NCBI GenBank assembly: GCA_964016885.1
Contig: OZ024740.1
Span: 274,660,001-274,724,000, forward strand
DNA length: 64,000 nucleotides
Direction: 5' to 3'
Source of the DNA: Eledone cirrhosa
Lineage: Eukaryota
Position 1 is the first letter of the stretch; every line of letters starts with the position of its first letter. The notes under the pieces were generated by a model. The model saw nothing but the letters and a program-made list of their open reading frames with translations. It did no database searches and was not told the DNA's origin. Shown one piece after another: positions 39,446 to 56,155 of the stretch. The position numbers and the translations under genes were made by a program.

Positions 39446-39570
39446 TAACGAAGGAAATGTGGTAAGGAACCAGGTGGACCATAACGCATCAAAGTACTCA
39501 ATACTTAGGGTAGTAGAGTGGGTAATAGGAACCAGTAAGACCCCGACGGGTGAGCTCAAGCCGTTTCGAC
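39446..39570 (-). mobile_element. Family B short Penelope-like terminus, truncated just 5' of the hammerhead GAAAC
   Basis: Matches 40178-40301; 3' end abuts (TA)n. Confidence 0.7.
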
Positions 39571-39788
39571 ACACACATATATATGTGTGTGTGTGTGTGT
39601 GTAATGAGCAAAGAAAATATCAGTAATACATAAAGATTTCCTGGTGGAAGTTCAGGTAAACTCCGGGTGTATATCCAGTTTCAGAGTGAAAATCCCATTT
39701 GAAATTCCAAAGAGATGGCAACATGAACGAATCTTTTATTTTTCTTAAAAAATATTTTTTCCAATTCCACCCCACCCGTCCCTTCTTT

Positions 39789-39908
39789 TTTTCTGGTGAA
39801 GGACTAACGTCCGAAACGTTAAGACCCTCTTCCTGATATTTCAAGCGTTAACCTAATATATTCCTTCCATTTACTGTACCGATTGTGTTGTTATTTCTGT
39901 TTACTTTT
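39789..39908 (+). mobile_element. Family A terminus with variant hammerhead (CTGGTGA-a-ggac-taac-gtcc-GAAACGTT), ending in (CA)n
   Basis: Homologous to 40712-40831 and 45357-45475. Confidence 0.6.
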
Positions 39909-40177
39909 TACACACACACACACACACTCATATATATATATATATATATATATATATATATATATATATATATATATATATATATATATATATATATATA
40001 TATGTATATATATATATATATATATATATATATATATATATATATATATATATATATATATATATATATATATATATATATATATATATATATGTATATA
40101 TATATATATATATATATATATATATATATATATATATATATATATATATATATATATATATATATATATATATATAT

Positions 40178-40405
40178 AACGAAGGAAATGTGGCAAGGAA
40201 CCAGGTGGACCATAACGCACCAAAGTACTCAATACTTAGGGTAGTAGAGTGGGTAATAGGAACCAGTAAGACCCCGACGGCTGAGCTCAAGCCGTTTCGA
40301 CGGCTAATTCTGGACTAAAAAAAAAAAAAAAAATTTTTTTTTTTAGTCCAGAATTAGCCGTCGAAACGGCTTGAGCTCAGCCGTCGGGGTCTTACTGGTT
40401 CCTAT
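40178..40405. mobile_element. Family B element with perfect fold-back (arms 40256-40317 / 40344-40405, A/T-run loop)
   Basis: taggaaccagtaagaccccgacggctgagctcaagccgtttcgacggctaattctggacta and its exact reverse complement; flanked by (TA)n. Confidence 0.85.
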
Positions 40406-40526
40406 ATATATATATATGTATATATATATATATATATATATATATATATATATATATATATATATATATATATATATATACATAAATATATAAAATTTAA
40501 AAAAAGAGGTTGTGTGGTTACCAATA

Positions 40527-40712
40527 AATATTATTTTAAAAACGTGGGTGCAAACACGAAAGACACAAACACATAGACAATTCCCCCTCATCGGCTGTCT
40601 TCTGTGGATCACTAAATTTCTAATTAGTGATCCACAGAAGACAACCGATGAGCGGGGATTGTTCTTGTGTTTGTGTATTTCGTGTTTGCACCCACGTTTT
40701 CTAAATAATATT
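40527..40712. repeat. Inverted repeat (about 89-bp arms, 8-nt loop)
   Basis: 40527-40615 pairs with 40624-40712 with few mismatches. Confidence 0.85.
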
Positions 40713-40747
40713 CTTCTGATGAAGGACTAGCGTCCGAAACGTTAAGA
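40712..40747 (+). ncRNA. Minimal type I hammerhead ribozyme (family A)
   Basis: tctt-CTGATGA-a-ggac-tagc-gtcc-GAAAC-GTT-aaga; loop-less palindromic stem III. Confidence 0.65.
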
Positions 40748-40934
40748 CCCTCGCTAGCTCTTTCAAGCGATTACCTAATATATTCCTTCCATATACTGTA
40801 CCGATTATGTTGTTATTTCTGTTTACCTTTTACACACACACACACACACACACACACACACACACACACACACACACACACACACACACACATATATATT
40901 GGAAAATGTGTGAAATCCTTGGAACAGTTAGGTA

Positions 40935-41245
40935 TATTTAAAAAAAGGAAAAGAATGGTTTCATTTGTAGTTCTAAACAATTTAATTTAATTTCATAATA
41001 TTATGATTTTACAATTTGGTTTTGTAGATCTAGCAAGTTCTTTGTTAACTACAGTGGGGAGATGTTTTAAAGATTCCTGGTTAACTTTCCTGGAGAACTT
41101 TCTCGCATTCGTCGGTGACGGTTGTCAAACTGCAACAAAGAACTTACTAGATCTACAAAACCAAATTGTAAAGTCATAATATTATAAAATTAAATCAAAT
41201 TGTTTAGAATTACAGGTGAAATCTGTCTTTTCCTTTTTTAAAATA
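40935..41245. repeat. Inverted repeat (about 110-bp arms, about 85-nt loop) between microsatellites
   Basis: tacaatttggttttgtagatctagcaagttctttgtt / aacaaagaacttactagatctacaaaaccaaattgta. Confidence 0.8.
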
Positions 41246-41669
41246 TATATATATATATAAGAGGGTGTTAAAGTTTGCTTGAAGCATTGTGAAATGTGTA
41301 AAATACGTAGTTTAGAAAGCCACAACAATGCAGAGGGAAATCTCGAGGTAGGAAGTGAATGATAAAATACGTGAAATAGGAGAAAGTGAAAGTTGAGAGA
41401 GACAAATGAAAACAAAACAAAGGTAGAAGGGTTACCGTAGGCCCGGCGAGCCATTGATTACAGAGTCGGGCTAGATCGATACAGATCGAAACTTCAGCTG
41501 ATCAACAGCGAAACGTGCGTCACCAACCAATAAACGTAATGAAGGAGTAACCATTCGTCCTTGAATTTATTATATTACACTCTGTCTAGCTCTACACCTC
41601 GATACATTGAGTGCTCACCCGGGTGAATCTACAGTAACTCCGCGTTACAGTCCCTGGATATATATATAT

Positions 41670-41810
41670 AGGTAAGTTATTCCAGGTTGAATCGGAGGCA
41701 ACCACAGTAAGTAAGGTACTCAATACATAGCAGAGTATAAAAGTTTTAATATAGATGAGATTCTACAGGACTAGAACTGTTTCATTCTTTAGAAATCATC
41801 AGGAATCTGG
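41670..41810 (-). mobile_element. Short Penelope-like terminus with degenerate hammerhead core
   Basis: Minus: CTGATGA-t-ttc-taaa-gaa-t-GAAAC-a-GTT (stem I unpaired), then ACTC..GAGTAC hairpin, then (TA)n. Confidence 0.5.
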
Positions 41811-54075: not shown

Positions 54076-54224
54076 TGAAAAGAGTCAGAGCCCAACGGCT
54101 GAGCTCTGGCCGTTTCAACAGAGCTAGTCCTGACTCTTTTCATAATACCCACTCTACTACCCTAAATATTGAGTACTCTGGGACGTTATGGTCCACCTGG
54201 TATCTTGCTAGACACTCTTTGTTT
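54076..54224 (+). mobile_element. Family B relative with short fold-back, in (TA)n
   Basis: tatgaaaagagtcag...ctgactcttttcata hairpin, then cccACTCtactaccctaaatattGAGTAC. Confidence 0.65.
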
Positions 54225-54261
54225 ATATATATATATATATATATATATATATATATATATA

Positions 54262-54450
54262 CTAGCCGAATTACCCGCACCTTGCTGCGTTTCACAGATT
54301 TTGTTTTGTAAGAAAATGATGATTGATTTTAAATCAGTGATATAATTTATGGAGAAAAACTCTGCATTTCAATATTACTCAATGTAAAGTGTAAAGCATG
54401 AAAAATTGGAAAACATTATTTTTTGTAATATATCAAATCAAAATTACATA
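54262..54450 (-). mobile_element. Helitron 3'-end fragment
   Basis: a|CTAGccgaattacccgcaccttgctgcg resembles the 13464 terminus. Confidence 0.45.
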
Positions 54451-54476
54451 TATGTGTATATATATATATGTATATA

Positions 54477-54933
54477 TACGATATTAAACAAATGGAAACT
54501 ATATTTATAAAACCATATTTATTTCGTTATATATATTTCTGGGATATCATATTAAAAATATGGTATGCCTTCCTCAGACAAAATACAATATACAAGCTGT
54601 TTTATAAATAATTTTGACATACCTTAGAATAATGCAACTTCCATTTAAAAAGTTTCACTACCAAATCAACTTTTTAAATGGAAGTTGCATTATTCTAAGG
54701 TATGTCAAAATTATTTATAAAACAGCTTGTATATTGTATTTTGTCTGAGGAAGGCATACCATATTTTTAATATGATATCCCAGAAATATATATAACGAAA
54801 TAAATATGGTTTTATAAATATAGTTTCCATTTGTTTAATATCGTAAACCTACTCCAAAAACTTTTGAGTGCTTTTATATCAGTTATAAAATATTTACTCG
54901 TTGTAACCCAACAATTTTAAATAAATCTTTTGC
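54477..54933. mobile_element. Fold-back element (near-perfect arms of about 178 bp, 54477-54654 / 54668-54845) with a hammerhead in each arm
   Basis: Plus 54737-54802: tattttgt-CTGAGGA-[aggcataccatatt...aatatgatatccca]-GAAA-tatatat-A-acgaaata. Confidence 0.78.
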
Positions 54934-54955
54934 ATATATATATATGTATATATAT

Positions 54956-55153
54956 AGGAAAAGGTTCAGGACCTCGACTGCAGAGCTCTACTGGTTTCGA
55001 CGGGTATTTCTAGTCCAGAAATAGCCGTCGAAACGGCTTGAACTCTGCCGTCGGGGTCCTGAACCTTTTCCTATTACCCACTCTACTACCCAAAGTATCG
55101 AGTACTCTGGTGCGTTGTGATCCACCTGGGTTCCTTACCACACATCCTTCGTT
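54956..55153 (+). mobile_element. Family B element with imperfect fold-back
   Basis: taggaaaaggttcaggacc...ggtcctgaaccttttccta; contains GAAAC-ggc...gcc-GTC-gggg. Confidence 0.75.
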
Positions 55154-55223
55154 ATATATATATATATAAACGGAAAAATTAAACGAAATTTCATTTCCCA
55201 CTCTTAGTACGGTTGTTACTTAA

Positions 55224-55740
55224 ATATAAGTATGTACACGTACATACATATATGTATACAGACGTACAGTAGTATGTATATATATATACATACATGCACA
55301 CATATATATATGTACGTATGGATTCACCAAACATTTATTATAATGCTCGGTGTGTTTGTAAACAAACATCCCGTATTAAGCCGTAGTGTCCAGCAACCAT
55401 CGTTGCTCGTTTGTTCAACACTGACAAAGGAACGCTGTACTAGTTTCAAGCTTATTAGCTATCGTCAGCAACGTATACCTTCCTGCCAGATTGTTGAACG
55501 TATATAGCTAATAAGCTTGAAACTAGTACAGCGTTCCTTTGTCGGTGTTGAACAAACGAGCAACGATGGTTGCTGGACACTACGGCTTAATACGGGATGT
55601 TTGTTTACAAACACACCGAGCATTATAATAAAGGTTCGGTAAATCCGTACATATATATATATGTGTGCATGTATGTATATATATATACATACTACTGTAC
55701 GTCTGTATACATATATGTATGTACGTGTACATACTTATAT
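55224..55740. repeat. Fold-back inverted repeat (arms 55224-55462 / 55504-55740)
   Basis: About 238-bp near-identical arms. Confidence 0.9.
55432..55474 (-). ncRNA. Minimal type I hammerhead ribozyme
   Basis: Minus: acgttg-CTGACGA-t-agct-aata-agct-t-GAAAC-ta-GTA-cagcgt; GUA triplet. Confidence 0.8.
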
Positions 55741-55755
55741 ATATATATATATAAC

Positions 55756-56155
55756 ATCAAAAGATGGTTAAAAGAGTTCCATGTATTTTATTATGCGCAT
55801 TTCAAAAACTAATATCATCATGCAATAACATTTGTGTTTTCATCAGATAAAATAGGAAGACATGATATGAAGGTTAAAAAACACTTGTGAATAGTGCAGT
55901 TTTAAATCAACATATCACTATTCACAAGTGTTTTTTAACCTTCATATCATGTCTTCCTATTTTATCTGATGAAAACACAAATGTTATTGCATGATGATAT
56001 TTGTTTTTGAAATGCGCATAATAAAATACATGGAACTCTTTTAACCATCTTTTGATCTTATATATTATGTATACTCCAGTCCTACAAACTGTAGAGTGCT
56101 TCTTATCCGATATCTGCATTGCTTTATTGTACTACAATAAAACTCACCTCCTACA
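55756..56155. mobile_element. Fold-back element (arms 55756-55896 / 55916-56056) with a hammerhead in each arm
   Basis: Plus 55958-56028: tattttat-CTGATGA-[aaacacaaatgttat...gatatttgttttt]-GAAA-tgcgcat-A-ataaaata; 8-bp stem I, palindromic stem III. Confidence 0.82.

Follow-up and report, generated by a model that had tools for sequence, protein, structure and literature searches.

A covarying hairpin occurs twice in the leader of Penelope-like elements assigned to the Hydra clade and lies next to both insertion ends

Introduction

Penelope-like elements (PLEs) are the closest relatives of telomerase among retrotransposons. How they choose internal start sites for reverse transcription, and how their tailed, inverted insertions arise, is an open question. 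Here we analyse a hairpin motif in a 64,000-nt stretch of the Eledone cirrhosa genome (assembly GCA_964016885.1, contig OZ024740.1, positions 274,660,001 to 274,724,000, forward strand; hereafter the window). The motif lies in the untranslated leader of PLEs that we assign to the Hydra clade, occurs there in two copies, and is found just past both ends of inverted insertions.

Several parts of this system are already known, namely the tail (an optional 3' extension on one side of an inverted insertion), the hammerhead ribozyme, the Hydra clade itself and internal initiation. Statements on published work here refer to the openly accessible parts of the cited sources. In the Poseidon element Poseidon_Ac (PAc), reverse transcriptase (RT) starts internally at two adjacent sites that are the ends of the tail, both target strands are extended, and a dimer is predicted (Frangieh 2024, PMC11167929). 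The tail has been credited to resolution by the endonuclease (Craig 2021, PMC8557442).

Results

The motif is a bulged stem-loop with a covarying upper stem

The hairpin was picked out by a reading of the window's letters alone (the original prediction), which listed 11 sites, all of which we found where it had placed them and on the same strands. Its simple 4-bp hairpin corresponds to the lower stem (mostly RCUC/GAGY) of a larger structure, in which a 2-nt bulge on the 3' side (U-N) separates the lower stem from a covarying upper stem, both bulge and upper stem having been missed. Loop length is unconstrained (~60 nt in family H), and the stem is followed on its 3' side by an unpaired RC, usually then U.

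For the covariation test we used 54 instances, dereplicated at 70% from 99 (12 from the E. cirrhosa genome and 42 from other loci), in whose choice the upper stem had played no part. Upper-stem cells were paired at a frequency of 0.80, as compared with 0.51 in 5,000 permutations (maximum 0.64) that take no account of phylogeny, and this excess was seen only with a 2-nt bulge and not with lengths of 0, 1, 3 or 4. In a MAFFT alignment of 50 rows (46 of the 54 instances and four window sites), 97% of the cells were paired versus 85%, with 42 double changes, and slid controls gave 21-56%. The covariation that the original prediction had proposed as its check is therefore present.

All four Watson-Crick pair types occurred at upper pairs 2 and 3. 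In the lower stem, three forms of pair 1 were seen (G-C, A-U and U-A) and two of pair 3 (U-A and A-U); the invariance of the two C-G pairs is partly a product of the search requirement. The G-C outer pair, originally read as a swap from A-U, is in fact the usual form (44/54), and A-U the variant. Upstream of the stem, a U was found at position -6 in 67% of the 54 instances, and UA or AU at -6/-5 in 70%. A GAGTACTC palindrome 3' of the stem was considered as a dimerisation site and dropped, because the second base after the RC varies (C 27, T 15, A 7, G 5; n = 54). Rfam covariance models had no match in L365:1300-1640 nor in loci L194, L203 and L274, and among the 150 listed of 344 sub-threshold hits in the window there were only microRNA-type or similar models on microsatellites, repeats and palindromes.

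Two hairpins per leader mark the insertion ends

In full-length leaders the order is hammerhead, hairpin 1, hairpin 2 and ATG. Among 21 distinct leaders (from 73 candidates), at least one strict copy was present in all 21 and two strict copies in 14; the control on their open reading frames (ORFs) gave 0/21, and 420 shuffles yielded 11 single hits and no double one. Hairpin 2, which the original prediction had missed together with the link to both element ends, lies 57-94 nt past hairpin 1 and 37-111 nt before the ATG. At one locus from outside this genome (L270) the tail stops 5 nt before a second copy that is present in the upstream tandem unit, so that each window family was predicted to have a hairpin 2 just beyond the end of its tail. 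Such a copy was then found for families A, B, C, F and H, followed in each by the ATG of a Hydra ORF.

To map the ends, we used eight family references and left out the query-selected loci. Here, 260 copies ended before passing hairpin 2 and five ran through. Of the ended copies, 202 adjoin a microsatellite and 58 have no recognised microsatellite junction. In 94% of the microsatellite-abutting ends (189/202), the element stopped within 14 nt 5' of a hairpin (99 at hairpin 1 and 90 at hairpin 2), the other 13 being located elsewhere. Insertions end ~3-8 nt 5' of the hairpin, with TA microhomology blurring the exact point. In contig sets from separate runs, the family-A leader gives way to (AT)n at exactly two points, one 5 nt and the other 3 nt ahead of a hairpin, and the recurrence of the same two breakpoints in independent contigs excludes an assembly artefact as the source of these junctions. 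A survey of asymmetric inverted repeats adjoining microsatellites, in which tails were gathered without using the motif, also placed the motif start 0-7 nt past the end of the inverted arm in many unalignable families.

Head-to-head insertions had one end at each hairpin in 69/70 cases, as compared with 50% if the ends were independent (p = 6e-20); with query-selected loci included, the figure was 126/131. With ends at hairpin 1 and hairpin 2, the PLE tail, 57-94 nt long here, is thus the spacing between the two hairpins. The hairpin-side ends are precise and joined to target repeats, and the opposite ends are variable. The tail-less arm was the longer, ORF-bearing one in three of the eight cases that could be placed, which fold-back of a single complementary DNA (cDNA) cannot produce, and 12 of the 70 centres have 0-2 nt between the arms, too tight for a fold-back loop.

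These results bear directly on the idea that the hairpin is a stop, at whose stem an RT copying antisense RNA, or its own cDNA after fold-back, would halt. A tail-bearing copy contains hairpin 1, which has then been read through; the 69/70 split would demand that every insertion involve one read-through and no more; the longer arm can be either of the two; and the precision, like the junction with the target repeats, is found at the hairpin ends. Arkhipova 2013 (PMC3846280) put forward an antisense template with self-priming, stems serve as boundaries in telomerase and DRT10 (PMC12632851), and many pairs are near-palindromic at the centre, but we consider a stop improbable. As a template-boundary element the hairpin is also misplaced: the stem lies 3' of the copied region, so that an antisense template would be needed.

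Tandem arrangements were seen as well. Two loci (L367 and L368) carry a 257-bp tandem unit that contains the hammerhead 3' half, both hairpins and the ORF start, possibly a minimal non-autonomous, retrozyme-like unit. At two places in the genome (G000:C1:91476611-91487262 and C1:437200348-437210965), four family-A leaders follow each other head to tail with a period of ~3.5 kb.

The motif is enriched 3' of hammerheads

The recurrence noted originally is above chance. The window holds 14 distinct pattern matches versus a shuffle mean of 2.8 (maximum 11 in 100 shuffles); three of these (at 5853, 30360 and 42147), absent from the first list, are not the element and are missed by the covariance model. 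In an 800-kb genome sample, drawn at regular intervals along the chromosomes, the pattern occurred 111 times versus 59.9 in shuffles, and 73 versus 17.5 when a following T was included, and five control patterns (reversed order or one base changed) stayed near or below shuffles except for one (83 versus 68). Apart from this sample, the analysis covered the flanks of other loci. About half of the raw matches are background: a bulged stem together with a microsatellite 25-80 nt 3' was found in 50/111, and neither in 43/111.

This background, together with the fact that one family supplies four of the 11 window sites, is what speaks for chance or for shared descent of one recent, functionless family. 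The probability of such an origin is close to nil, as it is refuted by the covariation, the one-of-each use and the leader results, including the empty ORF control. Rather than the one recent family that the original prediction had named as evidence against itself, we found 54 instances surviving dereplication, with four pair types at two upper positions, and host proteins only ~40% identical.

Of 176 hammerhead-like cores, 16 were followed by the motif, on the strand of the core, at 15-75 nt past the cut; the opposite strand and an upstream control window had none, and the interval at 200-260 nt had two. The claimed position downstream of a hammerhead thus holds as an enrichment, but only 4/11 window sites passed an intact-hammerhead test: the core at 43855 failed on stem I, the four family-A copies retain only the hammerhead 3' half, and two sites have mutated cores.

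The hairpin lay between hammerhead and ATG in 21/21 leaders. From there it might regulate the hammerhead or be its tertiary partner, or it might serve the leader in promotion or translation, with its link to the ends being secondary. The distances point elsewhere. That from the cut to hairpin 1 varies (~20-75 nt), as does that from hairpin 2 to the ATG, with the second copy a further 57-94 nt away, whereas the distance to the junction is constant, and one end per hairpin would be left unexplained. A role of this kind is thus highly improbable, even though the PAc hammerhead is protein-assisted (PMC11167929) and a bound protein could also activate the ribozyme. Between the functions originally offered, RT/endonuclease recognition or priming fits best and a ribozyme tertiary partner fits poorly.

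The carriers are assigned to the Hydra clade

By their protein sequences, targets and hammerheads, the motif carriers are PLEs of the Hydra clade. Seven of the eight window families were linked to a Hydra ORF, family A through loci L096 and L365; family G had no continuation to one, and in locus L141 a same-strand Hydra match lies ~2 kb upstream with a microsatellite between. Motif-bearing tails sit behind ORFs with the Hydra hallmarks as defined in Craig 2021, and the carriers are inserted in (TA)n and have a hammerhead in the pseudo-long terminal repeat (pLTR), as this clade requires. At L339 a single ORF of 709 aa contains YRDD and YIGLT (RT plus a C-terminal GIY-YIG-type endonuclease); the RT was also weakly similar to that of a Neptune ORF (E = 6e-6). 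The motifs RW[KRI] and [AS]DK[TS] (RWK-like and DKT) were found in full-length ORFs from this genome and from elsewhere. Hydra ORFs have a CxCX5C linker, and CxxC and CxH around a conserved E and N, with no CCHH; Neptune ORFs differ. Likeness to the published Hydra proteins (Craig 2021 supplement) was judged by eye only. Three Hydra fragments scanned against Pfam, and a Hydra profile searched against PDB, gave no match.

Neptune or Nematis elements as carriers were a first guess, dropped on tail comparison and the Hydra hallmarks. The genome is rich in Neptune-type ORFs. When the tails and leaders of Neptune or Poseidon pLTR elements were checked, the motif was present in 0/27 hammerhead-to-microsatellite stretches, a weak control in which Hydra rows scored only 2/13, because many Hydra copies end before hairpin 1; by eye, none was seen in three Neptune leaders up to the ATG. 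Neptune leaders may own a different end signal, none being obvious in those three.

The loci outside this genome were 94 from metagenome and metagenome-assembled genome contigs. They show the G-C form 3' of the hammerhead, often with the second copy next; no relative was found in viral contigs. The "unrelated families" of the original prediction are unalignable in loops and flanks but belong to one clade. In the published consensuses (Craig 2021 File S7, read by eye), the motif is clear in 4/6, from coral, sea-cucumber and octopus families (Hydra-2_Amil, Hydra-1_Ajap, where it occurs twice, Hydra-2_Ajap and Hydra-1_Obim), is a variant in the copepod Hydra-1_Crog, and is missing in Hydra-1_Amil, which seems to end earlier. 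The claim of a shared cis-acting element is thus borne out by strand and position enrichment and by covariation, in many families and several phyla.

Some further observations concern the carriers. One Hydra endonuclease fragment gave 55,959 first-look candidates in the genome. No RNA record was listed for the family-A leader, which has no bearing on expression. Hydra PLEs with hammerhead and hairpins also occur in prokaryote-labelled contigs (L267-L284), most likely through contamination from the host animal. The hammerhead of a family-A copy (L096:4870-4985) combines the U3-A8 variant of the core with a long stem II and a stem III that is palindromic; this core variant was already described (PMC4209133).

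Hairpin sites and other features of the window

The hairpin-1 sites and associated features of the window are the following.

39494-39519, minus strand: hairpin 1, family A; only the hammerhead 3' half upstream; tail reaches (TA)n at 39448
40225-40250, minus strand: hairpin 1, family A; tail end at 40179
40256-40405: inverted arms, head to head, of the insertion at 40225; the arm without a tail stops 5 nt before the hairpin-1 position
41579-41614, plus strand: hairpin 1, family G; upstream hammerhead with a mutated core; tail end 41657
41716-41736, minus strand: hairpin 1, family E; hammerhead core from 41802; tail end 41671
43855-43876, minus strand: hairpin 1, family D, a variant with a 1-nt bulge; core of the hammerhead at 43926-43948; end of the inverted arm at 44069
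46731-46753, minus strand: hairpin 1, family H, with G-C as the outer pair; hammerhead core from 46847; tail end 46693
50617-50643, plus strand: hairpin 1, family F; preceded by a long-stem hammerhead that is mutated; tail end near 50692
54151-54176, plus strand: hairpin 1, family A; preceded by a short inverted arm; tail end 54223
54477-54845: inverted arms of family B, with a hammerhead in each (54535-54577, minus strand; from 54745, plus strand)
54851-54871, plus strand: hairpin 1, family B; upper stem decayed in the window copy; tail end 54933
54954-55074: inverted arms of the 55080 insertion
55080-55105, plus strand: hairpin 1, family A; tail end 55152
55966-56025, plus strand: minimal type-I hammerhead, family C; mirror copy 55799-55846, minus strand
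56073-56099, plus strand: hairpin 1, family C; tail end 56154
56073-76/56094-97 (lower stem), 56077-79/56089-91 (upper stem), 56092-93 (bulge) and 56098-99 (RC), plus strand: parts of the family-C hairpin

The window also contains a short fragment of a Hydra ORF (57208-57324, plus strand) and further inverted, tailed PLE remnants without the motif (46975-47320, 40933-41247 and 55221-55743), the first two of which match by eye the Neptune families of L064 and L063. An open frame at 34296-34886 (minus strand), which resembles the restriction-like endonuclease end of an R2/R4-type non-LTR element, adjoins (ATGT)n and has no Pfam match. A fragment at 12314-12700 (plus strand) resembles the C-terminus of a hAT-type transposase. 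Two families of repeats similar to short interspersed nuclear elements (SINEs) are present at 42035-42310 and 30360, and at 42768-43200, 48450-48630, 52780-53010, 59740-59900, 62020-62210 and 63300-63900; the first family is the source of the chance pattern matches at 30360 and 42147.

Discussion

The same motif, at the same offset and with UA or AU at -6/-5, accompanies both ends, which argues for the same event at both. Taken with the internal starts at the two tail ends in Poseidon, the end data suggest that one RT is anchored per hairpin, 3' of its start. Each hairpin, as RNA, is probably a binding anchor for the element's protein that sets an internal start of reverse transcription.

For the insertion as a whole we lean towards a programmed twin priming, in which a dimer seated on both hairpins would prime both strands of (TA)n from one RNA and the cDNAs would be joined. 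A transcript spanning the hammerhead and both hairpins, produced by tandem read-through or as a circle, would be bound by two RT-endonuclease units, one per hairpin, each of which would nick one strand of (TA)n. The nicked 3' end would pair over 1-4 nt with the UA/AU that precedes its hairpin by ~6 nt. A cDNA begun before hairpin 2 would include hairpin 1 and the tail, a cDNA begun before hairpin 1 would lack both, and their joining head to head at the variable far ends would give an inverted arrangement with the tail on one side only. The template would have to cross an uncut hammerhead or be circular, and the ~3.5-kb head-to-tail arrays would fit either.

Several points weigh against this interpretation. 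Its in-vitro support comes from another clade (Poseidon) and none from Hydra elements, and a 96-nt stem-loop given as text in Fig. S1 of Frangieh 2024 shows no motif by eye. The second copy carries one deviation (by eye) in 7/21 leaders; hairpin 2 of family E is only a minimal variant (in full-length copies, with the Hydra ORF ATG following), and searches for it in families D and G gave nothing. Among the insertions, 41 pairs have no spacer and 18 no measurable arm, so that the arm-length argument rests on eight cases. The covariation nulls, as said, ignore phylogeny. Counts of G-U versus A-C (~13 versus 9) leave both the strand and the choice between RNA and DNA undecided. Isolated hairpins fold weakly (z from +0.1 to -2.3), and the proposed register is the minimum-energy fold in only ~3/9 window sites and is missing from the fold in 150-nt context, alternative registers often winning. 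An unremarkable folding energy suits a protein-stabilised site, yet also counts as a caution.

The main rival reads the hairpin as DNA, in single-stranded cDNA or a cruciform, where the GIY-YIG endonuclease would bind it and cut at a TA-like site a few bases off, so that a longer intermediate would be resolved into tailed and tail-less ends. It predicts identical end positions and could yield the one-of-each use; the junctions are indeed TA-like, and the wobble counts fail to separate it from an RNA reading. Resolution by the endonuclease is also the published account of the tail (PMC8557442), and the Drosophila Penelope endonuclease required the tail to recognise plasmid DNA (cited in Frangieh 2024, PMC11167929). 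In the only reconstituted PLE, however, both ends of the tail are start sites on the RNA, and the DNA that is cleaved is AT-rich and unrelated (PMC11167929); reading the hairpin as DNA requires an extra, unexplained priming step; we consider it rather unlikely.

The motif, with its covariation, two copies and one end per copy, allows the true ends of elements in a very abundant class to be annotated by rule, offers exact mutations for testing start-site choice, and provides a minimal RNA for binding and structure studies. If anchoring by RNA hairpins is correct, twin priming would account for both the PLE tail and the inverted pLTR, and ~25 nt would be a portable signal to start reverse transcription within any RNA and, if portable, a defined handle for RNA-templated insertion at (TA)n.

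Several known systems resemble parts of this arrangement. In hepadnavirus epsilon and the R2 3' untranslated region, a bulged stem-loop or a terminal RNA structure recruits the RT, but epsilon primes from a protein at the bulge and R2 begins at the RNA 3' end. Twin priming by L1 likewise involves both target strands, but uses random internal homology, and its 3' region is not duplicated at a fixed second site. In the telomerase template-boundary element and DRT10 SL5, a stem adjacent to the template positions a telomerase-related RT, with a short primer-template alignment (PMC12632851); there, synthesis is stopped by stems located 5' of the template, whereas the Hydra hairpin, seen on the coding strand, is 3' of what is copied and would define where copying begins.

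With PAc, these elements share two adjacent 3' ends bounding an optional tail, an AT-rich target, an upstream hammerhead and starts associated with a stem-loop. PAc, however, starts inside one AC-rich stem-loop within the ORF, with a tail of 30-40 nt, and no conserved or repeated motif is reported in the accessible text, whereas in the Hydra elements a covarying motif is duplicated in the untranslated leader at a spacing of 57-94 nt, the ends lie just 5' of each copy, and the junctions have TA microhomology. With the Hydra clade of Craig 2021 (PMC8557442) they share the protein hallmarks, the (TA)n target, the hammerhead and inverted truncated copies; the motif goes unmentioned there, and the term "stem-loop" occurs 0 times in the main text. 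Neither the motif nor the one-of-each rule was found described in the openly readable literature text or in Rfam. What is new, and within that literature previously unremarked, is a conserved, duplicated structural signal that fixes both ends of the element, and the rule that each insertion uses one of each.

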